A stretch of 64,000 nt of DNA. Origin: Escherichia coli. Lineage in GTDB: Bacteria; Pseudomonadota; Gammaproteobacteria; Enterobacterales; Enterobacteriaceae. The position numbers were made by a program, and so were the translations under genes. The stretch is from assembly GCF_003018255.1 (NCBI RefSeq), contig NZ_CP027440.1; one strand, written 5' to 3'. The notes beneath the pieces are model-generated. The model had not been told where the DNA came from and made no database searches. It saw only the letters and a list, made by a program, of their open reading frames with translations. Below, in pieces: positions 1,354-52,849 of this stretch. Within the stretch, counting starts at the first letter, position 1. Each line of letters starts with the position of its first letter.

Positions 1354-3834
1354 ATGGGTATTCAGAATTTCGACCACTCACACCACAAGCTCAAAATTCG
1401 CGGCCTGAAAAGCCCGGTGGACGTGCTGACGTTTACGGGCCGGGAACAACTCAGCGCACCCTTCCGCTACGACATTGAATTTACCAGTACCGATAAAACC
1501 ATCGAGCCGGAGTCGGTGCTGATGCAGGATGGCGCATTCAGCCTGACGGCACCGCCGGTACAGGGAATGCCGGTACAGACTGCCCTGCGCACCCTGCACG
1601 GCGTCATTACCGGCTTTAAACATCTCTCATCGTCACAGGACGAAGCCCGTTACGAAGTGCGCCTTGAACCCCGTATGGCGCTGCTTACCCGCAGCCGCCA
1701 GAACGCCATCTACCAGAACCAGACGGTGCCGCAAATCGTCGAAAAAATCCTGCGCGAGCGGCACCAGATGCGCGGTCAGGACTTCGTGTTTAACCTCAAA
1801 AGCGAATACCCGTCCCGTGAACAGGTGATGCAGTACGGTGAGGACGACCTGACGTTTATTTCACGCCTGCTGTCAGAAGTGGGTATCTGGTTCCGCTTTG
1901 CCACCGACGCCCGGTTGAAAATCGAAGTTATCGAATTTTACGACGACCAGAGCGGCTACGAGCGCGGGCTGACGCTGCCGCTTCGCCATCCTTCTGGGCT
2001 GTTTGATGGTGAAACGGAAGCCGTATGGGGGCTGAACACCGCGTACAGCGTGGTGGAAAAAAGTGTCTCCACGCGGGACTACAACTACCGTGAAGCCACG
2101 GCGGAAATGACCACAGGCCAGCATGACGCCACCGGGGGCGATAACACCACTTACGGCGAAGCCTACCACTATGCCGACAACTTCCTGCAACAAGGCGATA
2201 AAGAGGCAGCGGAAAGCGGCGCGTTTTATGCCCGTATCCGTCACGAACGCTACCTGAATGAACAGGCCATTCTCAAAGGCCAGAGCACCAGTTCACTGCT
2301 GATGCCGGGGCTGGAGATAAAAGTTCAGGGCGACGACGCGCCTGCGGTGTTCCGCAAGGGCGTGCTGATTACCGGCGTGACGACCAGCGCGGCGCGTGAC
2401 CGCAGCTATGAGCTGACGTTCACGGCGATACCGTACTCAGAGCGCTACGGCTACCGTCCGGCGCTTATCCCCCGCCCGGTCATGGCCGGAACGCTCCCGG
2501 CGCGGGTCACCAGCACGGTGAAGAACGATATCTATGCCCATATCGACAAAGACGGGCGCTACCGGGTCAACCTCGATTTTGACCGCGATACGTGGAAACC
2601 GGGTTATGAGAGCCTGTGGGTACGCCAGTCGCGCCCGTATGCGGGAGACACCTACGGCCTGCATCTGCCGCTGCTGGCGGGAACGGAGGTCAGCATCGCG
2701 TTTGAGGAAGGCAACCCGGACCGACCGTATATCGCCGGGGTAAAGCACGACTCGGCGCACACCGACCATGTGACCATCCAGAACTACAAGCGTAACGTGC
2801 TGCGCACCCCAGCAAACAACAAAATCCGCCTCGACGATGAGCGCGGCAAAGAGCATATCAAGGTCAGTACCGAGTACGGCGGCAAGAGCCAGCTAAACCT
2901 CGGCCATCTGGTGGATGCCGGGAAACAGCAGCGCGGCGAAGGCTTTGAACTGCGTACCGATATGTGGGGCGCAGTGCGGGCGAAGAAAGGCATCTTTATC
3001 AGCGCCGATGCGCAGGACAAGGCTCAGGGTCAGGTGCGGGAAATGGCTCCGGCAATGGCAATACTGGATGGCGCACAGTCACAGATGAAGTCGCTGTCCA
3101 CTGATGCGCAGACGGCGAATGCCGATCCGGCAGATCTGTCATCACAGATAGCGCTGTTGCAGCAGAGTGTAAAAGATCTGACGCAGGCGGTGATCCTGCT
3201 AAGCGCACCCAAAGGCGTGGCGATCGCCAGCGGCGAGCACCTGCAACTGGCGGCGGCAAAGAATGTGATAGCCAACGCAGGCAACAACGCCGATGTCGGC
3301 GTGGTGAAAAATATGTTTATCGGCGTGGGACAGGCGCTGAGCGTGTTTGTGCGTAAAGCGGGCATCAAGCTGTTTGCCAATAAGGGCGCAATCTCGGTGC
3401 AGGCGCAGAACGACTTGATGGAACTGTTGGCGAAGAAGGAAATCATCATTACCAGTACCGAAGATGAAATTAAAATCACGGCGAAGAAAAAGATCACCCT
3501 TAACGGCGGTGGCAGCTACATCCGGCTGGATGCCTGTGGGATAGAAGCGGGAACGCCGGGAGAATATAACGTTAAGGCGGGATATTATGGGCGTAAGCCG
3601 AAGGCGAAGCTGACGCCGGAGCTGATGGCGTTTCCGGTGATTGAGGGTGGAGACTATTCTCGCTGTTTTAAATTTTTTGATGACGAAAATATCCCATATC
3701 GTAATGTTAAGTATATAGCCAATTTTATTGATGGAACAAAAAAGGAAGGTGTCACTGATGATGAGGGATGCACCGAAACATTTTTTAGTGATAAAGAAGA
3801 AGAAATTGAAATTGAGATTTTACTTGGTGTTTAA
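1354..3834 (+). CDS. vgrG: T6SS spike protein VgrG with C-terminal extension
   Basis: 826-aa ORF. The N-terminal two thirds read as a gp27/gp5-like VgrG (N-terminal block ...GLKSPVDVLTFTGREQLSAPFRYDIEFTS...). The last ~60 codons are AT-rich and unlike the core. SD AACGGAGG precedes the ATG. Confidence 0.85.
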   Translation: MGIQNFDHSHHKLKIRGLKSPVDVLTFTGREQLSAPFRYDIEFTSTDKTIEPESVLMQDGAFSLTAPPVQGMPVQTALRTLHGVITGFKHLSSSQDEARYEVRLEPRMALLTRSRQNAIYQNQTVPQIVEKILRERHQMRGQDFVFNLKSEYPSREQVMQYGEDDLTFISRLLSEVGIWFRFATDARLKIEVIEFYDDQSGYERGLTLPLRHPSGLFDGETEAVWGLNTAYSVVEKSVSTRDYNYREATAEMTTGQHDATGGDNTTYGEAYHYADNFLQQGDKEAAESGAFYARIRHERYLNEQAILKGQSTSSLLMPGLEIKVQGDDAPAVFRKGVLITGVTTSAARDRSYELTFTAIPYSERYGYRPALIPRPVMAGTLPARVTSTVKNDIYAHIDKDGRYRVNLDFDRDTWKPGYESLWVRQSRPYAGDTYGLHLPLLAGTEVSIAFEEGNPDRPYIAGVKHDSAHTDHVTIQNYKRNVLRTPANNKIRLDDERGKEHIKVSTEYGGKSQLNLGHLVDAGKQQRGEGFELRTDMWGAVRAKKGIFISADAQDKAQGQVREMAPAMAILDGAQSQMKSLSTDAQTANADPADLSSQIALLQQSVKDLTQAVILLSAPKGVAIASGEHLQLAAAKNVIANAGNNADVGVVKNMFIGVGQALSVFVRKAGIKLFANKGAISVQAQNDLMELLAKKEIIITSTEDEIKITAKKKITLNGGGSYIRLDACGIEAGTPGEYNVKAGYYGRKPKAKLTPELMAFPVIEGGDYSRCFKFFDDENIPYRNVKYIANFIDGTKKEGVTDDEGCTETFFSDKEEEIEIEILLGV

Positions 3835-3866
3835 AAATACTACCCTTAATTATTAAAGAGAAAAAA

Positions 3867-4601
3867 ATGAGCAAAAATGTAATATTAAGTAATGGGGAAA
3901 GAGAAAATCCTTCTCCGCTGATCTATGACAAGCATAAAAAGCACTGTATTTTTCGTACAAAGACATTACTTAGTGAAGAGAAAAAAGAAGACGAAAAATG
4001 TACTGTATCAGTTGTATTTATTGATCATGAGGGGTATATAAGAAATGCTGGAATTATAAAACACACAGTCCCTGAACTTGAAGAAGGTCGCATGCCTAAA
4101 ATTAATGCAATAATATTGCATAGAACAGATTCTTCAACAATAAATGGTACACTTGCTAGTTTTTCTAAAGGCATTGGAACTCATTTTATTGTTGAAAAAG
4201 ATGGTAATATATACCAGGCTGCAAGCCTATTTGTATATACCAGCCATGTGGGGAAGATAAAGTCTCGATGTAAGGAGGAAAAAACATGGTCGTCTGAAGA
4301 AAAAAAGAAAACAGAGGCATTCGGATGGAATGCTAAGAAGATACATGATCATGAAAAAATTAAACAATATCCTTATAGATATCCATATAATATGGACAGT
4401 GTTGGCATTGAGGTTATTGCATTATATGATAAAAAAAATAAAAAATGGGAGTCTGCTACAGACTCTCAAAAAAAATCAATTGAGAAACTTGTAGATATAA
4501 TAAAAAATATTTATGAGTTAGAAGATAGGGATGTTTATGAACATGATAAAATTAGTTATAAAACAGAAGGTGAAGGCGCTGATCTCTATAGTGTTAATTA
4601 A
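3867..4601 (+). CDS. Putative T6SS effector, Amidase_2 (PGRP/AmpD/T7-lysozyme-like) N-acetylmuramoyl-L-alanine amidase domain
   Basis: 244 aa with no signal peptide. Motifs ILHRTDS, THFIVEKDGNIYQ, SVGIEVIALYD and EHDKIS resemble Amidase_2 zinc-amidase signatures. AT-rich gene immediately downstream of vgrG. Confidence 0.55.
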   Translation: MSKNVILSNGERENPSPLIYDKHKKHCIFRTKTLLSEEKKEDEKCTVSVVFIDHEGYIRNAGIIKHTVPELEEGRMPKINAIILHRTDSSTINGTLASFSKGIGTHFIVEKDGNIYQAASLFVYTSHVGKIKSRCKEEKTWSSEEKKKTEAFGWNAKKIHDHEKIKQYPYRYPYNMDSVGIEVIALYDKKNKKWESATDSQKKSIEKLVDIIKNIYELEDRDVYEHDKISYKTEGEGADLYSVN

Positions 4602-4980
4602 TTTCTTTTTTTGTTCAAATAGTTACTCCGAAGAAAAAATAGAGATAATAAACATTAATAAACCAATATATATAGGTACCAATCAATCAGATAAGGTGCT
4701 TATTACTGCGTGTAATCATTGGGTGCTTAATTCTAGAGATATTATAGACATATTCAATCTAAGTATAAAGCATGATGATTATGGCGAAATAAACAGAATG
4801 TATTATTGGTTACCTTGTGAAATTAGAGGGAGACTAATGTATGACGGAATAGAATGGAGTTTTGTTATCAATGCTGCTGCAACAGCAATGTGGATGAGCA
4901 ATGATAAAGAGATTTACTGGGGATGCAATAAAAAAGCATGCGATAATTTCTTTTTATTACCATATGATGGGATGAGGTAA
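4543..4980 (+). CDS. Putative secreted (periplasmic) immunity protein for the upstream amidase
   Basis: Start is ambiguous (ATG 4531/4543 or GTG 4570) and overlaps the effector 3' end. N-terminus MIKLVIKQKVKALISIVLINFFFCSNSYS has the form of a Sec signal peptide. Small Cys-rich AT-rich ORF. Confidence 0.45.
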   Translation: MIKLVIKQKVKALISIVLINFFFCSNSYSEEKIEIININKPIYIGTNQSDKVLITACNHWVLNSRDIIDIFNLSIKHDDYGEINRMYYWLPCEIRGRLMYDGIEWSFVINAAATAMWMSNDKEIYWGCNKKACDNFFLLPYDGMR

Positions 4981-5085
4981 ATCACAGTTAATAAAGCAAA
5001 AACATTATGGACAAGTGAATTAATCAGATAGTTCAAGCACCTTGAGATTCATTGTATTCATATTTCAGAATAACGGATTATTACA

Positions 5086-6300
5086 ATGCCCATCCGACTT
5101 AATACCATTCCCGACGCAGAACCCTATCCCGCACCGCCAGCCCGCATTAAATGGCTGTCAGCCTTATTACTGATGCTGTCTGTTGGTGTGGCAATAACCT
5201 CATTATTCGCCAGCGATGAACTGGCAAAAAACGGCCCATATTTCTGGGGGCTGGCCTGCGGCGTGCCTGCTTTTATCTGGTCACTGGTCGGTTCGGTGCG
5301 CTGGCTGGTATTTGTCACTCAACATATTCGTGCCGATGCCTGGAATCAACGTCGCGAAGAAGTCATTTTGCAGGAAACACGGCGGGGACGACGGGCGTTG
5401 CAGATACTCAGTTTTTCCGTACAAACCGCGCTGAATGGTGATTCCGTCGCAGAAACTACAACAGCATTTCTGGCGCGTCATCAGGTGTTGAATACTTACG
5501 CTGATTTGCGCGGAGAAGATACCGTGCGTCGCAGTGTCATTCCCGTATTAACCAATAAACCGGTTACCGGGCGTTTATCCGAAATTATTTCCCGCCTTTT
5601 TATTGATATCAGACCGCAATTGTTTCTGCTGCCCCCTGATTTTCATATCAACGTACTACTGGAAATTGATGCGCCGCTTTCAGGGGCCTCCGTGAGAACT
5701 ATCTGGCAGGACGAATGGCAAAAAGCCGGACTCCCCGAAGCCCGTCTGTTTTCTGCCCCGGAGCCGGGGCTGGCCGCCGTGGACGACTGGCTGGACAACT
5801 TTATTCAGGAAAAGGCCGTACTGCTGGTGATTTCCGTGCGTCTGGAACCGAAGAACCCGGAACGGACGGCAGAATCCGCCACCGCGCTGTTGCTGGCAAA
5901 CCGACTGACGCAAACCGCGCTGACGCCGCTGGCCCTGCTGCATCGTCCTGAACGTATCACAGATACGGAGATGATGGCGTCAGGCATTGCACAGGCGCTG
6001 GACTGGATGCCGGTGCAGCCAGATGCCATATCCGGCATGTGGACAGTCGAACTGAACAGGGAACAGCGCGCCTCGCTGCTGTCATCTAACCAGCCGTTTA
6101 CTCAGGAAGCCCTGATGTACGAGCTGGATGCCTTTCTGGGGTGCTCCGGACCGGCAGCGCCGTGGCTGTCCGTCGCTGCGGCAACGCTGGCGGCAATACA
6201 ATCACAACACCCCCAACTGACGCTCAGCGGCGTTCAGAACGGGCATTATTCATGGGCGACCATGGTGTCGCCATTCGTTTCCCCTCAGGAGGCATCATAG
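5086..6300 (+). CDS. T6SS-associated inner-membrane protein of unknown function (two N-terminal TM helices plus ~330-aa soluble domain)
   Basis: 404-aa ORF. Hydrophobic stretches WLSALLLMLSVGVAITSLFA and FWGLACGVPAFIWSLVGSVRWLVFV lie near the N-terminus. Composition is GC-rich like the T6SS core genes. Placed between the cargo module and tssM. Confidence 0.5.
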   Translation: MPIRLNTIPDAEPYPAPPARIKWLSALLLMLSVGVAITSLFASDELAKNGPYFWGLACGVPAFIWSLVGSVRWLVFVTQHIRADAWNQRREEVILQETRRGRRALQILSFSVQTALNGDSVAETTTAFLARHQVLNTYADLRGEDTVRRSVIPVLTNKPVTGRLSEIISRLFIDIRPQLFLLPPDFHINVLLEIDAPLSGASVRTIWQDEWQKAGLPEARLFSAPEPGLAAVDDWLDNFIQEKAVLLVISVRLEPKNPERTAESATALLLANRLTQTALTPLALLHRPERITDTEMMASGIAQALDWMPVQPDAISGMWTVELNREQRASLLSSNQPFTQEALMYELDAFLGCSGPAAPWLSVAAATLAAIQSQHPQLTLSGVQNGHYSWATMVSPFVSPQEAS

Positions 6301-6356
6301 TGGTTCCGGGATTAAACCGTCTCCGGCCCCGTTCGGTTTCAGGGCCTGCCATCGTC

Positions 6357-9300
6357 ATGACCGTGGCCGTTGTGGTTGCGCTTTGCACGTTTATTCACCG
6401 TAAACCGGCATTGCTGGGCGTTGAACCGGGTAGTTCACAGCAAATGTACTGGATGGCTGGCGTGATTGCCGCAGGTGTGGTCTTTCTGATTATCATGGGG
6501 GTTTATCATCTGCTGAACCGCCACGCTGCCGTACAGAGCTTTGAACTCCACAGACAGCTTGCCGCCGGAGATGACTATCGGGCGGTGACGACAAAGAAAG
6601 CCGACAGCCGTCATCCGGCAATGGTGGAACTCGCCGCCTTCCTGCGCGACCGCTACGGCCCATTCTGGCGGCGTAAAATCCGCCTGCTGCTGGTGACCGG
6701 CGAGCCTGAACAGGCAGAGGCCATCGCGCCGGGGCTGACCGGGCAACACTGGCTGGAGGGCGACCACACGGTGCTGATATATGGCGGCAGGCCATCTACA
6801 GAGCCTGATGTCGCGCTACTGACCGCCTTAAAAAAACTGCGCCGCAGCCGTCCGCTGGACGGCATCATCTGGCCGCTGACAGAAGAACAGAGCCGCCAGA
6901 CGGCGCAACTCGACAAAGGCTGGCGCGAACTGATAAACGGCGGTAAGCGACTCGGTTTTCAGGCTCCACTCTATTTGTGGCAGGTCTGTGACAACGGTGA
7001 TTATCAGACCGGACGCCCCCTGCAAAGCGTCGGCTGCCTGCTGTCGGAACGCTGTACCCCGGAACAACTGGCTGCAATGCTGGAAGCACAAACCCTGCCG
7101 CTGACGGAACAGGGCATGTCGCAGCTGCTTACCGATAACCGCCATGATTTCCTGCTGCGTCTGGCCCATACCCTTGCAGAGCGGGGTATCGCTCACTGGC
7201 AAAGTATCCTGAAACCGCTGCTGGCAGGCGGCGCATTTTCCTCCCTGCGCCTGCGTGGCCTGATGTTCAGCCCGCCGCTTACCGCCGTACCGGAAGCCGC
7301 ACCTCATGCGTGGCTGCCGTCACCGGTCTGGGCGGGCGTGACCGGCGATAACGCGCGGGGTCGCACGGTGGGCTTTCCGTGGCTGCGTATCACGCTGATG
7401 TCTGCTGTCTGCGTACTGGCGATATGGGGGGCCGGAATGACGACCTCGTTCTTCGCCAACCGCGCACTTGTTCAGGAAACCAGCATCCAGACGGCGCGTG
7501 CACTCGATATCCGTCTGCCGCTGTCTGAACAACTGGTGGCGCTGCATACCCTGCAGGGTGAACTGGAGCGCCTGCAGTACCGTATCCGGGAGGGTGCGCC
7601 GTGGTATCAGCGTTTTGGCCTTGAACGTAACCAGCAACTGCTCGCCGCCGCCTTTCCCGGCTATGCGCAGGCGGCAAACCGGCTGGTGCGCGACGTGGCC
7701 GTTGACCATCTGCAACAGCAACTGAATGCCTTTGTCGCGCTGCCGCCCAATAGTCCGCAGCGTACCGCCACCGGCGAACAGCGCTATAAGCAGCTTAAGG
7801 CATTGCTGATGACTTCCCGCCCGGAAAAGGCCGACGCTGCCTTTTTCAGTACCACGCTGATGGCAGATGACCTGCGCTATGCAGGTGTACCGGAAGGTGT
7901 GCGTCAGAGCGTGTTGCCGTCACTGCTGACCTTCTGGATGGCGAATCTGCCGGAACACCCACAGTGGAAAACTTCGCCGCCACCGGAACTGACCGGCGCA
8001 GTGCGCAAAATCCTGCTGCGCCAGATTGGTGTGCGCAATGCCGAAAACACTCTCTACCAGAACGTACTGCAACAGGTGTCCCGCAACTACGCCGATATGA
8101 CGCTGGCGGACATGACCGGGGATACGCTCACCGAATCTCTTTTCAGTACGGAGCAGACGGTGCCGGGGATGTTTACCCGTCAGGCGTGGGAAGGACAGGT
8201 CAGGGAAGCCATCGAGCAGGTGGTGACGGCGCGGCGCGAGGAAATCGACTGGGTACTCAGCGACCGCCAGCAGGATACCTCTGCGGATATCTCGCCGGAT
8301 ATGCTGCGTAACCGTCTCACTTCACGCTACTTTACCGACTTTGCCGGAAGCTGGCTGGCGTTTCTCAACAGCATTCGCTGGAAAAAGGAAGACTCGCTCT
8401 CCGGCATTCTCGACCAGTTGACGCTGATGGCCGATGCCCGCCAGTCACCGCTGATTGCGCTGACAGACACCCTCGCGTGGCAGGCGGCGGCTGGCAGGGA
8501 AAACCGTGGCCTGTCAGACTCGCTGGCGAAATCGGCACAGGAACTGTTTAACGGCAAGGAGAAAACGCCGCAGCAATCCCGTGAAGGCGACGTGCCTGTC
8601 GGGCCGCTGGATAAAACCTTCGCGCCGCTGCTGCGGTTGCTTGGCGATAAGGCAGGAGGCGGCGACAGCCAGCTGAGCCTGCAGACCTACCTCACCCGAG
8701 TCACCCGCGTGCGCCTCAAACTGCAACAGGTGACCAACGCCCCTGACCCGCAGGAGATGACCCAGCAACTGGCGCAGACGGTCTTACAAGGCAAAACCGT
8801 TGACCTTACCGACACCCGCGACTATGGCAGCCTGATAGCCGCCAGTCTGGGTGAAGAGTGGAGTGGCTTCGGTCAGGCGCTGTTCGTCCGCCCGGTGGAG
8901 CAGTCATGGCGGCAGGTGCTGACGCCTGCGGCAGACAGCCTGAACCGCCAGTGGCAGCGGGCGATTGTCAGCCACTGGGATCAGGACTTCGCTGGTCGCT
9001 ACCCGTTCAAAGCCTCACAAAACGATGCCTCCCTCCCCCTGCTGGCGCAGTACCTGCGCGATGACGGGCGCATCAACCAGTTTATCGCCGCCAATCTTTC
9101 CGGCGTACTGAAACGTGAAGGCCGCTACTGGGTGGCTGACGCCATGAACACGCAGGGGCTGACAGTCAATCCGGACTTTATTCGCGCCCTGAACCGCCTG
9201 CGCGATGTGGCCGATACCGCCTTTGCCAGCGGCGATGCAGGGATACATTTTGAACTGCGGGCAAAACCGGCGCGCGACGTGATGAAGACGCATCTGGTGA

Positions 9301-11286: not shown

Positions 11287-12698
11287 TGGCAATGGGAACA
11301 GGCTACTTTCTGGTCAGGGGGGACAAAACCACCTGCGGCGGCAAAATTATTGAAGGCGCGGACGACCATACGATCATGGGTATCCCGCAGGCGCGGGATA
11401 TGGACCGGGTCACCTGCGGCAGATATCCGGGAATGTTTATTATTGTGGGCGGCGTTCCTGAAACAGATATTCACGGCAGGCTGATGGCGGGGACGCTGGA
11501 CAGTCAGAGCAGTTGCCCGTGTAAGGCACGGTTTATTGCGTCAATGATGGATGATACGTATGAGACGGATGACGGGGAAAGTGAAGCGGAACAACATGCG
11601 CAGTCGGCGAAAAAGGATCTGACTTCTGGTTCTGATTCATCCTCTGATGATGTAAAACTGGATTACAGAATTAAATTATCAGGTAATAAGATACTGACGC
11701 CACTGAATATACCTGATTATAAAGAAATGATTAGCGGTGGTAGTACGAAGAATACAGAAAAAATAGATTTTACCATCACAAATAAAGGCGATGAGGCTGA
11801 AGCGCTTTCTCTGGAAGTGCTTGATGGTAATGAAGTGATTTATAGTGAACGGCAGACCGGTAAATATTGTGATAAGGGAGAGCATGCCTGGCAATGGGAT
11901 GGCTACAGTAATCAAGGCATACTGGATACAACTAAGATAAAAAGCAAATCACTACTCGTAAGACTGATTGCTTTATGTGGTGATATGATGATAAAAGTTG
12001 ATTATCCATTGAAAAATGCTGCGAAAGAAGAAGAGTGGGTTGATGTAAAAGTTGACAGAAATAATAAAGTGGTCGATATAACATGGAGATTATCTGTTAA
12101 GGATAGCGGTACAAAAGGCAGTAACCCTGAGTTATCGCCAATACCTTATAGCGATTTAGTTAGTCTTACTAAAAATGGCGTGGAGTTTTACTGGTCACGA
12201 AATGGAAGTCGCGGCGGGGGAATTGGTGGTAATATCGTTACAGCGATTGGGGTTTTTAAAGTAAATGTAAAGGCTGAGATAAATATTACTCCATCTATGC
12301 GAACTTTTGATTTGATATCATCGTTAGATCCAGATATGCAGTCGTCGGTAAGTCTTTTGGGGTTTGAAAAAATATACCATAACTATGGTGGCTATTATAA
12401 TAACAGCAAGGATGAAATAAAGGCTCTTCTATATAGTAATGAAAGATATAAATGGGATAGTGCTCATGAGATGGGACATAAAGTTATGGATAAATATGGT
12501 TCTGAATCATGGACACATAAGGGGACATCCACGCGGGGTCAAAGTACCATCCCTAATACTCCAATGCCATCTTCAGGAGAGATTGATATAATGAAATATG
12601 CAGATAGCTATGCACCTGATAGATATAAGAGATTGGTCGCGGCAGATGAAGATGTTCAGGCATTGATCTGGTTGAGCAGGGTGAGTTTTAATGATTAG
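11286..12698 (+). CDS. PAAR-like domain protein with C-terminal HExxH (zincin-like) putative toxin domain
   Basis: N-terminus (GDKTTCGGKIIEGADDHTIMGIPQARDMDRVTCG...) resembles PAAR/DUF4150 spike-tip domains. C-terminal region is AT-rich and contains HEMGH. ATG overlaps the tssA stop (TGATG). Confidence 0.6.
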   Translation: MAMGTGYFLVRGDKTTCGGKIIEGADDHTIMGIPQARDMDRVTCGRYPGMFIIVGGVPETDIHGRLMAGTLDSQSSCPCKARFIASMMDDTYETDDGESEAEQHAQSAKKDLTSGSDSSSDDVKLDYRIKLSGNKILTPLNIPDYKEMISGGSTKNTEKIDFTITNKGDEAEALSLEVLDGNEVIYSERQTGKYCDKGEHAWQWDGYSNQGILDTTKIKSKSLLVRLIALCGDMMIKVDYPLKNAAKEEEWVDVKVDRNNKVVDITWRLSVKDSGTKGSNPELSPIPYSDLVSLTKNGVEFYWSRNGSRGGGIGGNIVTAIGVFKVNVKAEINITPSMRTFDLISSLDPDMQSSVSLLGFEKIYHNYGGYYNNSKDEIKALLYSNERYKWDSAHEMGHKVMDKYGSESWTHKGTSTRGQSTIPNTPMPSSGEIDIMKYADSYAPDRYKRLVAADEDVQALIWLSRVSFND

Positions 12699-12713
12699 AA
12701 TAATTGTTTTTTA

Positions 12714-13115
12714 TTGTTTTTTTTGAGTGGGTGTACTTCACAAAAAGAGTATTCCAATATAGTCAGGATTGAGAATAGATGCTCCTCAGATATCGATGTC
12801 TTTATTCAGGGATATGTTTCCGGTTCTACGCTGATTTATCAGCATAATATACACTTGCCAGTTGGTGATAGTGATGTATTAGTATATTTTTCCACGGCAG
12901 ATATTGATGATGGTTTTAAATATGAGGGGGCATTCATGATATATAAAGATAGCCGCGGTGAATTGGATTATCCATTCACCATTTCATTGTCAGGGCGCGA
13001 AAAAAAATTTGGGAAGAATGACTTAATTAGATTATCACGAGATATTTCAACAAAAGACGACAGAAAATACGGAGTTATAAGATATATAATCGACAGTCAG
13101 GAAATTTGCCCGTGA
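12714..13115 (+). CDS. Small AT-rich ORF, candidate immunity protein; 5' end probably disrupted by a homopolymer frameshift
   Basis: The track ORF starts at a TTG. An upstream ATG at 12691 (overlapping the PAAR stop) encodes MIRIIVFYCFF and then hits a stop after a T8 tract. One extra T would give MIRIIVFYCFFLSGC..., a lipoprotein signal with lipobox. Confidence 0.4.
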   Translation: MFFLSGCTSQKEYSNIVRIENRCSSDIDVFIQGYVSGSTLIYQHNIHLPVGDSDVLVYFSTADIDDGFKYEGAFMIYKDSRGELDYPFTISLSGREKKFGKNDLIRLSRDISTKDDRKYGVIRYIIDSQEICP

Positions 13116-13324
13116 TGTTTTAAGTTATTCGTTCACAATTATTAATTATTGCCTATTATGTAAGGTAAATTTAATTTGGTTCAGAAAAGACAAGAATACA
13201 TCATTATTAAAATCAATAAGTCAGCAACTATCCATAATATATTCACATAGAATAAATTTAACTATGATGTTACTTCTACACCTGCATGATATTCACTTTC
13301 AATGAAAGGAAGATAATCCCTCCG

Positions 13325-18453: not shown

Positions 18454-18660
18454 ACATCGGGGGATTTATGTACCAATAAGGGATATGTGACCTTGCCATT
18501 TTTTAAAATGGAGTCTCTGTGTACAAAAAAGAGAGGAACAGGCCATTCGATCTACTCGTTGATTCACATCAGATAATGAGTGTATATTTCGGTAGATAGC
18601 TTGGGTTCGGGAACAGTGAATACCTTAAGTTTCAAAAGATTGGATTAACCTCTTGACTGT

Positions 18661-18674
18661 GGCCCCCGCAACCA
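18661..18674 (+). repeat. 14-nt segment identical to the 3' end of initiator tRNA-fMet (GGCCCCCGCAACCA); putative island attachment-site remnant
   Basis: Exact match to the acceptor-stem 3' strand plus discriminator and CCA of E. coli tRNA-fMet as I recall it. No full tRNA is present in the window. Lies at the boundary between the T6SS cluster and the downstream region. Confidence 0.55.
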
Positions 18675-18692
18675 ATTTATTAGAATGCTGAC

Positions 18693-18728
18693 AAACCGCA
18701 ATGTGTTCTACAAATTGCGGTTTTTTTG
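18693..18728 (+). terminator. Rho-independent terminator ending the T6SS operon
   Basis: Inverted repeat AAACCGCAAT / ATTGCGGTTT followed by TTTTTTT. Confidence 0.6.
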
Positions 18729-18753
18729 TATTTAAAATCTTTGTTCGCTGAAC

Positions 18754-19710
18754 TCACAACACGTTTTTTATCTCCCTTCCTGCGAAGTAATCAATTATCG
18801 ACTGGGCAACGTGTATCCCGGTTTGCTGGTATGACTCAACGGTGGCGGCCGCGATATGCGGCGTTGTAATGATATTTTTGGCATGTAGCAGTGGGCTAAA
18901 TTGCGCCAACGGTTCAGAGCTAAACACATCCAGCGCCGCAAACACATTTCGTTCTTCAATCACCTGAAGTAAAGCGCCCTCATCCAGCAACTTTCCCCTT
19001 GCGGCATTGATGATCAGAGCACCATTGCGCATCATCGACAAATATTTATGACTAATGAAGTTCTCCAGCTCAGAAGAAAAAGGCAAAAGAACAATGATGA
19101 CATGCGACTGCATAAAGATATCTTCAATTGATACAAACTGAACTCCAGCTTTGTCAGCAACCTGATAGTCGGGTTGTTTGTCAAAAGCTAAAAGCTCAAC
19201 ATCAAAACCAGATAACCTTTTCGCCAGTGTTTTGCCAATATTGCCGTAGCCAAGCAGGCCAATACGTTTACCTTGTAACTCGCAGCCATGCGACTCACCC
19301 CAATAACCATTTTGCATTGCATGATAGCTACCGGGGATATTTCTCATGCTCGCAAAAATAAGACCGATGATAAATTCCGCGACTGCGTTTGAATTAATCC
19401 CAACAGCATTATTGACCACAATACCTGATTGTCGAGCCGTATGAAGATCAATATTATCAATCCCTGTCCCGAATCTCGATATTATTTTCACTCCTGGTAG
19501 TCGCGATAACGTATCCGCTTGATAACAATCTTTTCCGGCAATGACTGCGCAAATAGATTCTCGTAATACTGTGGATTCTGATTTAACCAGATGCTCCACA
19601 TTATTCTTGATAATAAGGTTAAAATGATTTTCTCTTAGCAGCTTGCTGGCAGAAACACAACGCGCTGAAAAGCTGGGAACGGTGACCAGAACGTTTTTCA
19701 TAGCTGACAC
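18754..19710 (-). CDS. D-isomer-specific 2-hydroxyacid dehydrogenase family protein
   Basis: 318 aa. NAD-binding motif GLLGYGNIGKTLAKRL. Low-GC gene. Confidence 0.7.
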   Translation of the reverse strand: MSAMKNVLVTVPSFSARCVSASKLLRENHFNLIIKNNVEHLVKSESTVLRESICAVIAGKDCYQADTLSRLPGVKIISRFGTGIDNIDLHTARQSGIVVNNAVGINSNAVAEFIIGLIFASMRNIPGSYHAMQNGYWGESHGCELQGKRIGLLGYGNIGKTLAKRLSGFDVELLAFDKQPDYQVADKAGVQFVSIEDIFMQSHVIIVLLPFSSELENFISHKYLSMMRNGALIINAARGKLLDEGALLQVIEERNVFAALDVFSSEPLAQFSPLLHAKNIITTPHIAAATVESYQQTGIHVAQSIIDYFAGREIKNVL

Positions 19711-19771
19711 TCACATCAATGAACGCCACCCCAAAAGATGGCGTGACCGGTTACTGTTTTATATTCTAAAA

Positions 19772-20368
19772 TTATGAGTTTGCTTTAATACCGAGCGCAC
19801 CTCCTGGATGATATAAGCCGAAATCAGCACGAGTAAACTTTTTCAATTCGGAGAGCGCAAGCGCCACCGCATCACCAACAACCAGAACGACTGTTGATGA
19901 GCATGACGGCGCTAAACCTAAATTATCCGCCTCACTTTTTACGGGAATTTCAACGGATAAATCACAACTTATCGCAAGCGATGAGCGATGACTGCGGGTA
20001 AAGGAGATCAAATAATTACCCATTTTTTTCAGACTAGGTAGTGTTGCCAGGATTTCTGTCGTCTCACCACTGTTTGAAATAAGAATAACAACATCATCTT
20101 TCGCCACCATCCCAAGATCGCCGTGTACGGCTTCAGTACCGTGAACAAAAAACGAGGGAGTTCCAGTGCTGGCAAATGTTGCGGCGAGTTTTCGGGCAAT
20201 AATACCGGACTTACCGACACCAATAAAAACAACTTTCCCCTGACAAGACTGTAATACTTTAATTAAATTTGCGACCTCCGAAAGGGGGGAATCAATAACT
20301 TCTTCAACTGCTTTATGTTCGTTACGCATAAAATGTTTAATGAGATGGATAAGATCCGTACTGTTCAT
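19772..20368 (-). CDS. SIS-domain sugar-phosphate isomerase (KpsF/GutQ-like, no CBS domains)
   Basis: 198 aa. SIS-like block VVFIGVGKSGIIARKLAATFASTGTPSFFVH...ILISNSGETTEIL. Confidence 0.65.
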   Translation of the reverse strand: MNSTDLIHLIKHFMRNEHKAVEEVIDSPLSEVANLIKVLQSCQGKVVFIGVGKSGIIARKLAATFASTGTPSFFVHGTEAVHGDLGMVAKDDVVILISNSGETTEILATLPSLKKMGNYLISFTRSHRSSLAISCDLSVEIPVKSEADNLGLAPSCSSTVVLVVGDAVALALSELKKFTRADFGLYHPGGALGIKANS

Positions 20369-20370
20369 TT

Positions 20371-21546
20371 TTATTTTCCTTGATTAATATTTTTAATTAC
20401 ACTCGCAAGACGCGTAAGCCCCATATATAATTTTTCTCGACCGCAGGCCAGGTTCAGACGAAGGTAGCCCTCCCCCTCCGTTCCATAGACATTCCCCGCC
20501 ATAATGCCCACTTTGCCTTCATGAATTAATCGACTGTAGAATTCATCAAAGGAATAACCAATAGCAGAGCAATCTATCCACGAAAAATAGCAACCATCAG
20601 CTGGCCTTACGATCAATTCTGGAGTATTTTCGTTCAGATACTGCTGGGTGAATTGAATGTTAGAGGCGATATGTGCCTTTAATGACTTTAACCATCCCTC
20701 ACATTCATTATAGGCAACAATGGTTGCAATTATATTCAGTACTGATGGGGAGTTTACGAAATCGCGATACCTCGATATCGTTCTGAACTTATGATTATAA
20801 TCCTCGTCAGTTGAAATCAGATACGATCCTGTTAGCGCAGGAACATTAAATGTTTTCGATATCGAGTTAAATACCACTACTTTTTCTTTTTTTATTTTAA
20901 GCGCGGATGTAAAGCTACGATTAAAAACAAAATCACTATGAATTTCATCTGAACATAACCAGACATTATGCCTTGTACAGCTTGTAGCGATTTTAAGCAG
21001 TTCTTCTTCCGACCAGACTGTTCCTGTCGGATTATGAGGATTACATAATAACACCATCTTTGCGCTTTTAATCTTAAGATCAAAATCTTGCCAGTTGATA
21101 GCGTAGCCCCCCTCATTTTTTATAATCAAAGAGGCTGTCAGAATATTTCGCTCGCTATGTTTAATTACATCAAAAAATGCATTATAGACAGGTGTAAAAA
21201 CGAGAATATTATCACCATGCGATGTCAATAACTCTATTGCCTTTGCAATAGAGTACATCACACTGGGGCTATAGGTTATCCATTCAGGTTTAATGTCTGT
21301 TTGATATTGTTGATGATACCAGTTTACTATCGCATTCAGATATTCACCATGTTGCCAACGACTGTACCCTAAAATCGGGTGTTCCAGGCGTTTTTTTAAT
21401 GCTCTGGTGATAGCGTCTGGTATCGGAAGATCCATATCTGAAATAGAGAAGGGTAATACATCTTTTACACCAAATCTGTCCTCGCAAAAGTCCCATTGGG
21501 TGCAATATGTTCCTTTACGGGAAATAGGAGTATTAAAAATATCCAT
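20371..21546 (-). CDS. PLP-dependent aminotransferase class I/II, MalY/PatB-like C-S lyase
   Basis: 391 aa. Motif CNPHNPTG and a lysine-containing SISKTFN block typical of this family. Confidence 0.7.
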   Translation of the reverse strand: MDIFNTPISRKGTYCTQWDFCEDRFGVKDVLPFSISDMDLPIPDAITRALKKRLEHPILGYSRWQHGEYLNAIVNWYHQQYQTDIKPEWITYSPSVMYSIAKAIELLTSHGDNILVFTPVYNAFFDVIKHSERNILTASLIIKNEGGYAINWQDFDLKIKSAKMVLLCNPHNPTGTVWSEEELLKIATSCTRHNVWLCSDEIHSDFVFNRSFTSALKIKKEKVVVFNSISKTFNVPALTGSYLISTDEDYNHKFRTISRYRDFVNSPSVLNIIATIVAYNECEGWLKSLKAHIASNIQFTQQYLNENTPELIVRPADGCYFSWIDCSAIGYSFDEFYSRLIHEGKVGIMAGNVYGTEGEGYLRLNLACGREKLYMGLTRLASVIKNINQGK

Positions 21547-23126
21547 CAGCGCATCCCCATGTAGTTATCCATATCCCTACGCAGGGCGATGACTTTAGTG
21601 CCGATAATGACTTGTAGGGTATTTTGATCAAGTTTAACAACCGCAATCCCGCCAGCTCTTTTTATTGCAACTTCATCAATCAATCCCATATCTGCGATTG
21701 TTAAACGTAAACGAGTTACGCAATTATCCAGTGACTTAATATTCTCTTTACCACCAAGTGCCTTAACCATCTGCTCCGCTGCTTGCAACTCTGATTTATC
21801 AAGAGTTGGGGTATCCGCTATAGCCGTATCTTCGTGAGCGTTCAGCGTGACAGGACTGGACTCTTCACGTCCTACGGTCATCAGGTTAAATTTGAGAATG
21901 GTCCAACGGAACACAAAGTAATAAATGAAGAAATAGGCCACTTCAACACACACCGCGATCGGCCAACCTGTTCTTGTGCCACGCAATACGCCAAAGCTAA
22001 TAAATTGAATCAGATCGCCAGTAAATCCCATCTTCACGCCCATATATGGCAAGACCATGTTGGCGAATCCATTCATAAAGGCATGGAAGACAAACAGCAG
22101 CGGACTGACAAATAAGAACAGAAATTCAATCGGTTCGCTGACGCCACCAATAATAACCGTAAGCACACCGGAAATAAGCAATGCTTTGATAGCCTTTCTG
22201 TTTTGAGCATGAGCAGTGCGATACATGGCCAGTGCAGCACCAGCCAGACCGTACTGAATCATCAGTTTGCCCTGCTCCATTTTCCCCGCCAAATCCAGCG
22301 GAATGACCGCATTCTCTTTGACGTACGCCATAAACATGTTCAGGGTGCCGTAATACTCTTCGCCGCCAATCACAGCCGAACCGCCGATTGGCGTAAAGCG
22401 GAACACTGACGTCACCAGATGGTTTAAGCCAAAAGGAATCGTCACACGTTCGGCAACTGCATAGAAGAAATAACCAACAGGACCGGAAGTTGATATCCAG
22501 TGGCCAATGAGCATGAAGAGATTGAAAAATGGCGGCCAGATAAAAGGAATGATCAGACCAAATCCACTCATCACAATCAGTGTAATGATAGGCACCAGAC
22601 GTGGGCCGCTATAAAAACCTAATGATTCTGGAATGCGTAAATTAACGATCTTTTTATACATGCTGGCGACTAATAACCCAGCAACAATTCCCCCTAACAC
22701 GCTGGTATTGTAGGACTGGATCCCCAGAATGATGTTTTGCCCATGTGTCGACATTTGGTCAGCAACGACCAATAAGTCGTGCTGTTTAAGATAAAAGTTC
22801 GTTCCCAGATGCATCGCCATAAAACCAATTAAGCCAGAAAAAGCACCATAGGCTTTATCCTCTTTATCTTTTAATAATCCTAAGGGAATCGCTATCGCAA
22901 ACAATACAGGTAAATTAACAAAGGCAAACAAACCAAGACTAACAATGAAATCAAGTATGGTTTTAATTATTGGAATAGCCAGAAATGGAATTAACTTTGC
23001 CATATCATCACTGGCTAAACCACTTCCCAGCCCTAGCATCATGCCACATACACTTAGCAGAGCAATGGGATACATAAATGCCTTCCCCAGGCTCTGAAAA
23101 AAACTCCAGGCTTTCTTTTGTTTCAT
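21546..23126 (-). CDS. PTS glucose-family EIICB component
   Basis: 526 aa. Polytopic membrane domain plus C-terminal EIIB with NCVTRLRL phosphorylation-site motif. Confidence 0.8.
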   Translation of the reverse strand: MKQKKAWSFFQSLGKAFMYPIALLSVCGMMLGLGSGLASDDMAKLIPFLAIPIIKTILDFIVSLGLFAFVNLPVLFAIAIPLGLLKDKEDKAYGAFSGLIGFMAMHLGTNFYLKQHDLLVVADQMSTHGQNIILGIQSYNTSVLGGIVAGLLVASMYKKIVNLRIPESLGFYSGPRLVPIITLIVMSGFGLIIPFIWPPFFNLFMLIGHWISTSGPVGYFFYAVAERVTIPFGLNHLVTSVFRFTPIGGSAVIGGEEYYGTLNMFMAYVKENAVIPLDLAGKMEQGKLMIQYGLAGAALAMYRTAHAQNRKAIKALLISGVLTVIIGGVSEPIEFLFLFVSPLLFVFHAFMNGFANMVLPYMGVKMGFTGDLIQFISFGVLRGTRTGWPIAVCVEVAYFFIYYFVFRWTILKFNLMTVGREESSPVTLNAHEDTAIADTPTLDKSELQAAEQMVKALGGKENIKSLDNCVTRLRLTIADMGLIDEVAIKRAGGIAVVKLDQNTLQVIIGTKVIALRRDMDNYMGMR

Positions 23127-23157
23127 GTGGGTTATCTCATATAAATGTTATATATAA

Positions 23158-23982
23158 TTAGTCCATTAATACTTTGGTACGAATAGAGAGATATAGTTTT
23201 TCTTCTAAAATTAATTCATATTTAAAAGTGGCATACAGATACCGTTCAATTTCATGAATTGCGCGCTGTAACAGGATGTCCTTTTCAAGAAACTGTTCAT
23301 AGATATCACCAATATCTTTCTGTTTTATTTTTTCATTGCATAACACGCGACTTGAAAAATATTTAAGGTGCATCATAAATCTGGAATAGTTAAATGAACT
23401 TCTGTCCACCTTTCTGTTATAAACAACTTCAATAAGCTCCGTGATTATTTGCGACAACTCAATAATCCGTACTGATTCATAATCAACTGAATTTTCATAA
23501 TTATTTAAAATATGCAATGCTATAAAACCAATCTCATCATCAGGAAGTTGAACGCTGAATTGCTCATTAATGATAGTTAATGCATCGCGACTTATCGCAT
23601 ACTCTGCTTTGTACAACGCTTTGATTTCATCAAGGAAAACATTATTAATTTGTATACCTGAAACTACTCGGGATATTGCATTCGAAATGTGATCCGCAAG
23701 AATCAATAGTAGCGATGGATTGAGATTTTTTTCGAGATTTTTCTCCGCATATTGCACTATTTTTTCGGCAACAAAAATATACTCAATATCCACATGTTCA
23801 ATCAATTTGTAGAGTTTATTTTTTTGTTCGTTTCTGACATAAAAAATCCGGTTAGCCGGATGTTCAGGGACCGACATTCCATATTTTTTGTTATAACCGA
23901 CGCCAGGTCCAGAAATGATAACCTCCTGTCCATTCATCGATGCCTGTACACAATTATTGTTCATGACTTTTTCGATGATCAT
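23158..23982 (-). CDS. BglG/LicT-family transcription antiterminator (CAT RNA-binding domain plus PRD domains)
   Basis: Start taken at MIIEKVMNNNCVQASMNGQEVIISGPGVGYNKK (CAT domain signature) with SD GGAG 7 nt upstream. The track ORF extends 19 codons further upstream, into the leader hairpin. Confidence 0.75.
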   Translation of the reverse strand: MIIEKVMNNNCVQASMNGQEVIISGPGVGYNKKYGMSVPEHPANRIFYVRNEQKNKLYKLIEHVDIEYIFVAEKIVQYAEKNLEKNLNPSLLLILADHISNAISRVVSGIQINNVFLDEIKALYKAEYAISRDALTIINEQFSVQLPDDEIGFIALHILNNYENSVDYESVRIIELSQIITELIEVVYNRKVDRSSFNYSRFMMHLKYFSSRVLCNEKIKQKDIGDIYEQFLEKDILLQRAIHEIERYLYATFKYELILEEKLYLSIRTKVLMD

Positions 23983-23993
23983 TCCATGACTCC

Positions 23994-24075
23994 AAAAAAA
24001 AAGGCAAGGCACGTCAGAAGTAATAATTACTTCAAACATTGCCTTGCCTGATTTAACAGTTACAAGATGATTAAC
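23994..24075 (-). promoter_or_regulatory. Leader intrinsic terminator with overlapping RAT-like element upstream of the antiterminator gene
   Basis: On the minus strand: AGGCAAGGCA, a loop containing the palindrome GAAGTAATAATTACTTC, TGCCTTGCCT, then T9, directly abutting the SD. Upstream TTGTAACTGTTAAATCAGGCAAGGCA resembles the RAT consensus. Confidence 0.5.
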
Positions 24076-24239
24076 TAATGCGTATACATTACACGGAATT
24101 GTGCTTAATTAAAGAGATGGTCGGCTTATTTTTCAAGCCGACATTCAAATATTCGACATCAGTCACAAAACCAGCATCTAATATTCATGAAAATGTTATC
24201 TATTCAACGAAATATAAATTCATTGAATAAATAAAAACA

Positions 24240-45094: not shown

Positions 45095-45106
45095 AATTGG
45101 CGTGAC

Positions 45107-45637
45107 TTAACCTCTTTTACGTCGATAAGCAGATGCGTTTTGTGGTTTTGGCGTATTTTCCTGCAGTGACATCACCACACTCGCGAACTCTTTCATTACC
45201 CTACGGTAGACATCACGTTTAAATGACACCACCTGTCTGACTGGATACCAGTAACTTACCCATCGCCAGCCGTCAAACTCTGGTGTACTGCTGGTTTGCA
45301 TATTGATTTCTGCATCGCCGCTCACCAGCTGCAAGAGAAACCATTTTTGTTTTTGGCCGATACAAACCGGCTTCGTGTCCCAACGCACCAAACGTTTCGG
45401 TAATTTGTAGCGCAACCAGTTACGCGTTGAAGCAAGGATTCGAACGTCTTTGCGGCTTAATCCTACTTCTTCAAACAATTCACGGTACATCGCCTGCTCT
45501 GCGGATTCTCCGGGGTTGATTCCGCCTTGCGGAAATTGCCAGGAGTGCTGACCAAATCGCCGGGCCCACATTACCTGCCCCTGGCGATTACAAATCACGA
45601 TACCTACGTTTGGGCGGTAGCCATCGTCATCAATCAC
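45107..45637 (-). CDS. rppH: RNA pyrophosphohydrolase (Nudix)
   Basis: 176 aa. Nudix box [22 protein letters not shown]. Confidence 0.93.
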
Positions 45638-46321
45638 CGGACTACCTCAAAATAAAGCTTTATATACGAATGATTGTTTCATACTCCAGGAAGACGGTAA
45701 ACCACTCTCTGCAGGGCATTACACACTAATAACAATTGAATAACTCACAGTTATGTGCAGAGTTATAAACAGAGGAAGGGGTGGATAGCCGTTTTTATTC
45801 ACCTTTTCTGTGGATAGAGTTGTGAAGAACTACGGAATTACTACGGGAAAACCCGGAGCATTCTGAATAAGACAGATACAGAGATTTTAAAATATTCATT
45901 ATCAGTCAATGCATTACATGTGATTTGAGTAATAAAAAAGAGTAATTCGTGACCCAGGTCACACCTCTCATTTACGGGTTGGCGAAAGATCAACCAATGC
46001 CGTATTTATCCACAGAATGTGCCACTAAGTTAAGCACTGAACCACTAAAAACTGGAGTTTCGTCGCACGTCAAGGCTGTAAATGGAAACAGTAGTGAAGG
46101 TTTTTCACAGTTATCCCAGCTTTCTGTGGATAACATGGTGTAAGATCCTGTTTATTTTCAGTGACCAGATTTGGAAAACCCGTTGCAGTGTTGCGCAACT
46201 CGATTACCGGCAACCTAAAAAGCAATATAAATCAGAGAATTGAACAACGCATGTGGAAAAAGTTACACTGCGAATATTCGGCACTTAATTGCTGTTTGTT
46301 TTTTAACCAAGGTATCATGAC

Positions 46322-52761: not shown

Positions 52762-52849
52762 AAAAAAAACCTGCGCATCCGCGCAGGTTGGTGCAAGAGA
52801 CAGGGTACGAAGAGCGTACCGAATAATCTCACCAATCAATACCTCTGGG
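52762..52849 (-). ncRNA. omrA: Small regulatory RNA OmrA
   Basis: Minus-strand unit beginning CCCAGAGGTATTGATTGGTGAG and ending in the terminator hairpin CCTGCGCGGATGCGCAGG plus T-run. In the aas-galR intergenic region, as in K-12. Confidence 0.8.

Follow-up and report, generated by a model that had tools for sequence, protein, structure and literature searches.

The five AT-rich genes that lie between the T6SS cluster and amiC in the 64-kb stretch of Escherichia coli DNA that we analyzed (the window) are very probably a copy of c3405-c3410 (pafR, pafP/"malX"), a self-regulated PTS operon that forms a separate and old module. We put the probability of this reading at roughly 0.88. The operon itself is already known: it is c3405-c3410 of PAI-CFT073-metV, the "malX" PAI marker, and the pafRP locus of ExPEC. 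The new details are the RAT-plus-terminator leader, the sites that the operon occupies in other hosts, its AT-richness there, the divergence of its alleles, and the purifying selection on its genes. The features of the locus are:

18661..18674, plus strand: att remnant, GGCCCCCGCAACCA, the last 14 nt of the tRNA-fMet gene metV (from alignment with metV of O111:H8 and K-12)
18684..18732, no strand assigned: GC-rich hairpin with a T-run (inverted repeat I4), between att and the dehydrogenase stop codon
18754..19701, minus strand: D-isomer 2-hydroxyacid dehydrogenase, PGDH-like, 315 aa, without an ACT domain
19772..20368, minus strand: SIS-only sugar-phosphate isomerase of the KpsF/GutQ type, 198 aa, without CBS domains
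20371..21546, minus strand: PLP-dependent C-S beta-lyase of the PatB/MalY family, 391 aa
21546..23126, minus strand: PTS EIICB of the glucose/MalX subfamily, 526 aa, without an EIIA domain (the "malX" PAI-marker gene, pafP)
23158..23982, minus strand: BglG/LicT-family PRD antiterminator, 274 aa (pafR)
23994..24048, minus strand: intrinsic leader terminator, GGCAAGGCA...TGCCTTGCC followed by T9, just upstream of a GGAG Shine-Dalgarno and the antiterminator ATG
24043..24066, minus strand: predicted RAT-like hairpin for antiterminator binding, CTTGTAACTGTTAAATCAGGCAAG, whose 3' part runs into the terminator's 5' arm
24120..24142, minus strand: hairpin 3' of the amiC stop codon (24240), a terminator-like site from a consensus scan only

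Several pieces of evidence speak for the identity of the locus. First, in CFT073 (NC_004431.1, 3249590-3254819), five matching genes are found in the same order between VasL and amiC, with amino acid identities of 95.6-99.3% (tblastn). The layout of T6SS VasL, att, operon, and amiC is also the same. (The dehydrogenase is the first gene past VasL; C_RS16160 holds that position in CFT073, and the two proteins are 95.6% identical.) Second, the PCR primers for the RPAi marker, which is scored by an amplicon of about 0.93 kb, both have sites in the operon. RPAi-f matches 23260-23281 (minus strand, 0 mismatches) inside the antiterminator gene and RPAi-r matches 22360-22381 (plus strand, 1 mismatch) inside the EIICB gene, which gives a predicted product of 922 bp; both primers are exact in CFT073. 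Because colinearity and primer sites are read directly from the sequence, the identity of the locus is firm. The RPAi primers are the malX primers of Johnson & Stell (PMC12058657), and c3405-c3410 were assigned to PAI-CFT073-metV in PMC2831201. PMC8882828, in its part on pafR and pafP, also locates these two genes on the metV island. What differs from CFT073 is the allele: the window's operon has 96.2-96.5% nucleotide identity to two B2-type alleles (L016 and L017), and the most similar complete genome reaches 98.5%. The segment 19260-19860 is a recombinant patch that agrees with another allele class, which is seen in 106 genomes.

The operon consists of five co-directional ORFs on the minus strand, which span 18754-23982. 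(The ORF list gives 18754-19710, 19772-20368, 20371-21546, 21546-23126, and 23158-24039; we adopted a PGAP-style start at 19701 for the dehydrogenase and the real start at 23982 for the antiterminator.) From the antiterminator to the dehydrogenase, the intergenic gaps are 31, -1 (an overlap), 2, and about 70 nt. Profile assignments of all five products bear out the identities given to these genes in the original prediction. It had also described the operon as more AT-rich than the T6SS and core genes, and this is correct: GC is 40.6% (0.406) in the operon, versus 54% in the T6SS part (0.541) and 52% in the core part (0.516). GC3 is lower as well, at 0.32-0.46 in the operon genes versus 0.59-0.60 in amiC, argA, and vasL.

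The antiterminator matches the LicT model over its full length, with a score (225.7 bits) that is below the equivalog cut-off of 300. In Pfam, it has a CAT_RBD domain (residues 1-55, E = 2.7e-14), a PRD (residues 73-160, E = 5.6e-24), and a weak second PRD (residues 180-251, E = 0.038). Three of the four regulatory histidines of LicT are kept (the equivalents of H100, H159, and H207). The equivalent of H269 is arginine in Escherichia, Atlantibacter, and Citrobacter, and histidine in the distant ortholog from L023 (Logan SRR31617696), which is the most divergent full operon. Given the weak second PRD and the arginine at the fourth histidine, control by HPr may differ from the LicT paradigm.

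The leader upstream of pafR could be aligned across eight loci from at least three genera (the hosts include Escherichia, Atlantibacter, and Citrobacter) plus one further taxon with a distant ortholog. The RAT is nearly invariant among these: each sequence can form the full set of 7 pairs, and there is one compensatory change, from G-C to A-U. It is the single RAT-like match in the window, where 0.03 would be expected by chance, and it fits the published RAT consensus. The terminator has a predicted fold of -30.2 kcal/mol (z = -3.9), and its hairpin is conserved, with compensatory pairs at 4 positions. In other words, all 8 of the 8 aligned loci retain the RAT and the terminator together. A consensus scan of the leader found no convincing sigma-70 promoter, and an Rfam scan of the whole window at gathering thresholds found OmrA and OmrB only, with no family in the leader.

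This arrangement is similar to the BglG/SacY/LicT/GlcT systems (bgl in E. coli; licT-bglPH and glcT-ptsG in B. subtilis), which have a CAT RNA-binding domain with PRDs, a RAT hairpin that overlaps an intrinsic leader terminator, and an adjacent gene for the cognate PTS permease. There are three differences. The permease here is of the Glc/MalX type and a glycosidase gene is missing; the enterobacterial orthologs have arginine in place of the fourth regulatory histidine; and there is just one RAT with terminator, before the regulator gene, and none in the 31-nt gap between the regulator and the permease.

We propose that transcription would begin at a putative weak promoter downstream of amiC and would halt at the leader terminator. 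When EIICB is busy transporting its sugar, it would presumably stop keeping the antiterminator phosphorylated. The antiterminator could then bind the RAT, which overlaps the terminator, and allow read-through into all five genes. EIICB would import and phosphorylate a glucose-family sugar derivative, and because it lacks an EIIA domain, it probably relies on EIIA-Glc (Crr). The downstream steps would fall to the C-S lyase, the CBS-less arabinose-5-P/ribulose-5-P isomerase, and the PGDH-like dehydrogenase, in an order and with roles that we infer. The CAT_RBD and PRD domains, the LicT-like profile match, the conserved RAT and terminator, and the tight gene spacing speak for this mechanism, as do the joint retention of the five genes in other hosts and their low dN/dS (values below). 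Points against it are the weak second PRD, the arginine at the fourth histidine, the negative promoter scan of the leader, and the lack of a nameable pathway for the three enzymes.

The isomerase shares 192 of its 198 residues (97%) with PDB 5UQI/5VHU, a solved structure whose chain has the same sequence as C_RS16165 from CFT073. This match adds to the evidence for the identity of the locus and makes the isomerase the c3406 ortholog. The papers Lloyd 2009, Mosberg 2011, and Baum 2014 are said to have reported arabinose-5-phosphate isomerase (API) activity (Mosberg 2011, for c3406), antitermination activity, and attenuation in the bladder upon deletion of c3405-10. The isomerase resembles KdsD and GutQ in its KpsF/GutQ-type SIS domain and, like gutQ, its gene lies within a PTS operon, but KdsD and GutQ have tandem CBS domains after the SIS domain. 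The profiles match over the SIS half only (KdsD, 197 bits; kpsF, 191.8 bits, just under the cut-off of 203.7).

The lyase scores 368 bits against TIGR04350 (above the cut-off of 340), aligns at full length with E. coli MalY (1D2F) and with 4DGT from C. difficile, and matches the SKxFN lysine motif. More distant lyases from MAGs (L010-L015, 28-34% identity) look like generic PatB. The dehydrogenase has GxGxxG and R/E/H motifs, and its closest match in PDB is 1WWK. We rejected its assignment as the D-3-phosphoglycerate dehydrogenase SerA, as it scores well below the equivalog cut-offs (216.7 versus 454 bits for TIGR01327 and 152.7 versus 404 bits for PRK11790). Also, SerA usually has a regulatory ACT domain, whereas this protein has the catalytic and NAD domains only. 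Distant homologs of the dehydrogenase (about 40% identity) have DHDPS-family aldolases as neighbors, in clusters of the nan-like or rhamnosidase kind. We did not transfer a substrate from these homologs because they are too distant and their context is too different. No pathway that joins the lyase, the API, and the 2-hydroxyacid dehydrogenase could be derived or named; glucosaminate-type and serine-pathway-like schemes were dropped as unsupported.

A possible but rather doubtful alternative is that the system is chiefly a sensor, with the permease and the antiterminator reporting a host-derived sugar instead of serving a catabolic pathway. Through RAT-like sites at other places in the genome, the antiterminator would also control biofilm, motility, and virulence genes, and the three enzymes would be minor or regulatory (for instance, by supplying arabinose-5-P for signaling or for KDO synthesis). 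The c3406-type isomerase suits this idea, and API paralogs occur in other PTS operons too, such as gutQ. The review PMC8882828, in the portion that summarizes Baum 2014, also points this way: there, expression of pafR is described as changing genes for virulence, biofilm, and metabolism and as inhibiting motility, and a table lists pafRP and pafP mutants as attenuated in mice. However, all five genes stay together in other hosts (at 48-85% amino acid identity), and all five are under purifying selection (dN/dS of 0.04-0.20), which argues that the enzymes belong to the selected function. Furthermore, the only RAT-like site within the window is in the operon's own leader.

The junctions support our reading of the operon as a separate module. 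The att remnant that had been predicted next to the operon is real: it is the 14-nt match to the 3' end of metV, in a single copy in the window. The T6SS island has its right end at this remnant, and the operon is on the far side of that boundary. (Since an ARAGORN scan of the window gave no tRNA, metV itself must lie upstream of position 1.) In K-12, the site is simply metV, 73 bp, and amiC, in agreement with the prediction that K-12 would lack the operon and have a bare tRNA-amiC junction. The hairpin at 18684..18732 is the terminator after metV in operon-bearing alleles; it is conserved in Escherichia and Atlantibacter, while Citrobacter has a different hairpin and K-12 carries another terminator. 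At the other end, the hairpin at 24120..24142 is probably, though on weak evidence, what terminates amiC in alleles that carry the operon. All four combinations of presence and absence of the T6SS and the operon occur at the metV-amiC locus. Since the operon is found with or without the T6SS, and beyond the att repeat of that island, it is a module of its own, as originally suggested.

When we compared complete E. coli genomes, the operon was present in 1,688 of 5,426 (31%), so it is not universal in the species. The junction of VasL, att, and the dehydrogenase was found in 951 genomes. The absence of the operon from 69% of genomes, its GC content of 0.41 (versus 0.52 in the flanks), and its location directly downstream of tRNA genes (in E. 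coli, and likewise in Citrobacter with tRNA-Asp) might indicate a recent horizontal transfer from a low-GC donor to ExPEC lineages, with insertion at metV by an integrase as a classical pathogenicity islet. We consider this unlikely for several reasons. First, there is no integrase gene: the gaps at 18454-18753 and 24040-24239 contain no ORF of at least 80 amino acids, and the five operon ORFs have other assignments. A search for repeats flanking the operon gave only short, chance-like pairs, and the sole copy of the 14-nt att belongs to the T6SS island. On these grounds, we rejected an integrase-borne genomic island at a tRNA site. (An inverted repeat of 25 nt and 80% identity, 18575-18599/24200-24224, was rejected as the module boundary because its left arm is on the T6SS side of att.) Second, the operon occupies the same metV-amiC site in E. 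whittamii, cryptic-clade Escherichia, and Atlantibacter hermannii, with divergence like that of amiC (72.7% vs 75.6% nt). Third, within E. coli, the operon alleles are mosaic, and they are 4-6 times more diverged than amiC (dS of 0.30-0.46 versus 0.08). Finally, in each of the hosts examined, the AT content of the operon exceeds that of its flanks, and we found no donor of matching composition. The original description of the operon as a separately acquired module stands, with the acquisition probably being an old one. We propose that the operon is old in Escherichia and is exchanged when homologous recombination takes place in the conserved flanks (metV and amiC).

The EIICB protein scores 536 bits against TIGR02004, versus a cut-off of 632, and 525 versus 665 in a second comparison with MalX; its scores for PtsG and NagE are 352 and 325 bits. 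The operon is similar to malX-malY of K-12 in that a MalX-type EIICB and a MalY/PatB C-S lyase are neighbors and the EIIA domain is missing from both permeases. But malX-malY is controlled by MalI, a LacI-type repressor, in place of the PRD antiterminator and RAT found here, and the operon adds two enzymes, the SIS isomerase and the dehydrogenase. Because EIICB is below the MalX equivalog cut-offs and there is no LacI-type repressor, we rejected identity with the K-12 malXY operon. The BglG/LicT-family antiterminator with its RAT and terminator could also suggest a bgl-like operon for beta-glucoside utilization, but this is very improbable, as models for beta-glucoside EII match only the EIIB part of the Glc/MalX-type permease (31-48 bits) and a profile search of the five products found no phospho-beta-glucosidase or other glycosidase family (GH1 or GH4 phospho-glycosidases included). 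The same evidence speaks against the beta-glucoside-like substrate that had originally been suggested.

"malX/PAI" is among the most widely typed ExPEC markers, and effects on fitness in the urinary tract have been reported. Recognizing the locus keeps the operon from being reported as a new island, and it places the "malX" marker in a small metV-amiC operon that is genetically separable from the adjoining T6SS. The locus combines deep, mosaic allelic diversity with AT-richness that persists across genera. More tentatively, and at some odds against, the five genes could form an undescribed PTS-linked pathway, with the enzymes acting in sequence on a sugar conjugate from the host. It would have been maintained as an ancient presence/absence polymorphism at metV-amiC that several species share, and would be AT-rich in all hosts. 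In that case, the substrate might be, for example, a thio- or amino-acid-linked sugar of the glucose family. If true, working out such a pathway would account for the association of the 25-year-old "malX" marker with extraintestinal virulence.

We examined the five minus-strand genes between the att remnant and amiC. The original prediction gave a family for each gene, and both the open reading frames and the NCBIfam and Pfam assignments agree:

18754-19710, minus strand: D-2-hydroxyacid (PGDH-like) dehydrogenase, 315 amino acids, with an annotation-style start at 19701 (NCBIfam, 217 bits against a cut-off of 454)
19772-20368, minus strand: SIS protein, 198 amino acids (NCBIfam KpsF/GutQ-type SIS domain; the CBS half is absent)
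20371-21546, minus strand: PatB-family C-S lyase, 391 amino acids (NCBIfam, 368 bits, above the cut-off of 340)
21546-23126, minus strand: MalX-like EIICB, 526 amino acids (NCBIfam, 536 bits)
23158-24039, minus strand: LicT-like antiterminator, 274 amino acids from its real start, the ATG at 23982 (NCBIfam, 226 bits)

From the antiterminator to the dehydrogenase, the intergenic spacings are 31, -1, 2, and about 70 nt, so the five genes form an operon-like unit. The antiterminator's ATG at 23982 has a GGAG 7 nt upstream, and the 57 nt of open reading frame that precede it are a terminator hairpin.

By its sequence, this operon is a well-known locus. First, the same five genes lie between VasL of the type VI secretion (T6SS) cluster and amiC in E. 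coli CFT073 (NC_004431.1, 3249590-3254819), with 95.6-99.3% amino acid identity. The SIS protein is identical at 192 of 198 positions to the chain in PDB entries 5UQI and 5VHU, which is identical to the CFT073 protein. (The CFT073 protein, c3406, is reportedly an arabinose-5-phosphate isomerase, which is credited to Mosberg et al. 2011.) The CFT073 genes, c3405-c3410, were described as "PTS system, maltose/glucose specific" and placed inside PAI-CFT073-metV; by the same report, all four UPEC genomes examined carry them, as do E2348 and SMS-3-5 (PMC2831201). Second, the RPAi primers, the classic ExPEC primers for the PAI marker malX, which are listed as malX with Johnson & Stell 2000 as the source (PMC12058657), match the operon. 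RPAi-f matches exactly at 23260-23281 (minus strand) and RPAi-r matches with one mismatch at 22360-22381 (plus strand), for an in silico product of 922 bp; in CFT073, both are exact at the same place. Third, a review describes pafR as a transcription regulator encoded on the CFT073 metV island, and it cites Baum et al. 2014 for impaired pafRP and pafP mutants in a mouse model of urinary tract infection (PMC8882828). Overall, the sequence identifies the operon as c3405-c3410, pafRP, and the malX pathogenicity island marker, and as such it was already known.

We then considered how the operon might be regulated. Its leader contains two overlapping elements:

24066-24043, minus strand: RAT-like (antiterminator-binding RNA) hairpin, CTTGTAACTGTTAAATCAGGCAAG
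24048-23994, minus strand: strong intrinsic terminator, GGCAAGGCA...TGCCTTGCC followed by T9 (fold of -30.2 kcal/mol, z = -3.9)

The hairpin CTTGTAACTGTTAAATCAGGCAAG fits the RAT consensus of BglG, SacY, and LicT targets, TTGTTACTG...CAGGCAAA. (Further PafR targets would be expected to carry TTGTNACTG-N6-CAGGCAAG, then a terminator.) The 3' part of the RAT doubles as the 5' arm of the terminator. We aligned the leaders of eight loci, from the window, O111:H8, a cryptic-clade Escherichia, E. whittamii, Atlantibacter hermannii, two Citrobacter, and a distant ortholog. In these leaders, the core of the RAT is nearly constant and the sequence around it diverges. All seven of the proposed RAT pairs form in all eight leaders, with one double change from G-C to A-U; with so little variation in the core, the statistical support for these pairs is weak. 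Pairing in the terminator stem is kept via compensatory changes at four positions.

The antiterminator has a CAT_RBD domain and two PRDs, of which the first is strong and the second weak (Pfam), and it keeps the equivalents of LicT's H100, H159, and H207. (At the equivalent of LicT's His269, around residue 268, all of the Escherichia, Atlantibacter, and Citrobacter orthologs have arginine, and the distant ortholog at locus L023 has histidine.) EIICB has the CxTRLR motif of EIIB, lacks an EIIA domain, and also matches PtsG (352 bits) and NagE (325 bits) in NCBIfam. By analogy with MalX and PtsG, it may use Crr. Given the conserved RAT and terminator and the antiterminator's domains, this is most likely a self-regulated PTS operon that would be controlled by substrate-dependent antitermination. 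A beta-glucoside-like substrate, which was originally suggested as a possibility, is unlikely: the EII falls outside the Bgl type (its match to the beta-glucoside models in NCBIfam is confined to the EIIB part) and the operon has no glycosidase gene.

How does the operon relate to the T6SS island? The att remnant GGCCCCCGCAACCA (18661-18674) exactly repeats the final 14 nt of metV and has no second copy in the window; no tRNA genes lie within these 64 kb. In K-12, metV is followed by 73 bp and then amiC, without the operon, and operon-bearing and empty alleles diverge directly after the 3' end of the tRNA and directly after the stop codon of amiC. The operon is not universal: besides its absence from K-12, it is present in 1,688 of 5,426 complete E. 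coli genomes (31%), nearly always as one chromosomal copy (1,206 at 95-99% identity to the window and 482 at 90-95%). We found four configurations at this site: empty (K-12); the operon directly after metV (O111:H8, with EIICB frameshifted); T6SS and operon (the window, JNE23-011, and CFT073); and T6SS with a MucR-family gene and no operon (IAL7254). The junction from VasL through att to the dehydrogenase occurs in 951 genomes, and the T6SS side alone was matched in about 250. Thus, the operon forms a module of its own, distinct from the T6SS island, as had been proposed: each occurs without the other, and the operon lies outside the island's att repeat. We found no integrase or flanking repeats bracketing the operon.

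Several other features of the region are worth recording. In strains with the metV T6SS and no operon, the MucR-family regulator gene sits between VasL and the att copy (4119-4667 of locus L004 from IAL7254; also genome H78, O103:H2). Some strains carry a decayed operon, with the EIICB frameshift in O111:H8 TW05614 (L002, 7886-9452) or with IS1 or ISEc12 insertions (H46 and H56). Within the T6SS cluster, 3045-6645 and 11287-13324 do not align with CFT073 and coincide with low-GC bins (0.31-0.49); they are probably variable effector/immunity cargo. The OmrA and OmrB sRNA genes (52762-52849 and 52964-53045, minus strand) are ordinary core features.

The operon was also expected to be more AT-rich than its surroundings, and it is: its GC content is 0.406, versus 0.541 in the T6SS part and 0.516 in the core part of the window. 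(GC3 is 0.32-0.46 in the operon and 0.59-0.60 in amiC, argA, and vasL. Further bins below the core average, at 0.41-0.45, lie outside the operon at 45001-46000 and 62001-64000.) It is more AT-rich than its own flanks in every host compared: 0.41 vs. 0.52 in E. coli, 0.39-0.40 vs. 0.50 in Citrobacter, 0.465 vs. 0.56 in Atlantibacter, and 0.36 vs. 0.51 (right flank) at L023. Among these hosts, we found no low-GC donor of matching composition.

Several other hosts also carry all five genes together in this order. They are at the metV-amiC site in E. whittamii, in the cryptic-clade strain "E. coli E69" (whose amiC is only 92% identical to the window's), and in Atlantibacter hermannii (68-86% amino acid identity). 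In Citrobacter (freundii complex and amalonaticus), the operon adjoins tRNA-Asp. (At Citrobacter loci L006 and L008, 9847-9924, the module abuts the 3' end of tRNA-Asp; the hairpin downstream differs, and the flanking sequence is not shared.) L023 has all five genes at 48-74% amino acid identity. Across all five genes, dN/dS is 0.04-0.20.

Alleles of the operon are quite diverged even within E. coli. Between the window and O111:H8, dS is 0.30-0.46 for the operon and 0.078 for amiC; the operon's divergence is comparable to that of amiC between E. coli and E. whittamii (dS of 0.31). The window and JNE23-011 are identical except at 19260-19860, which covers the dehydrogenase gene's 5' half and the SIS gene's 3' end. 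This patch matches most alleles, that of JNE23-011 among them, at 86-91% identity, and it matches 106 genomes, such as APEC O2-211, at 99.7%. From these sequence comparisons, the patch is recombinant and the operon's alleles are mosaic. The original prediction is confirmed as an observation and is essentially right in its interpretation. Our best reading is that the operon represents a presence/absence polymorphism that is old and recombining, and not a recently inserted islet.
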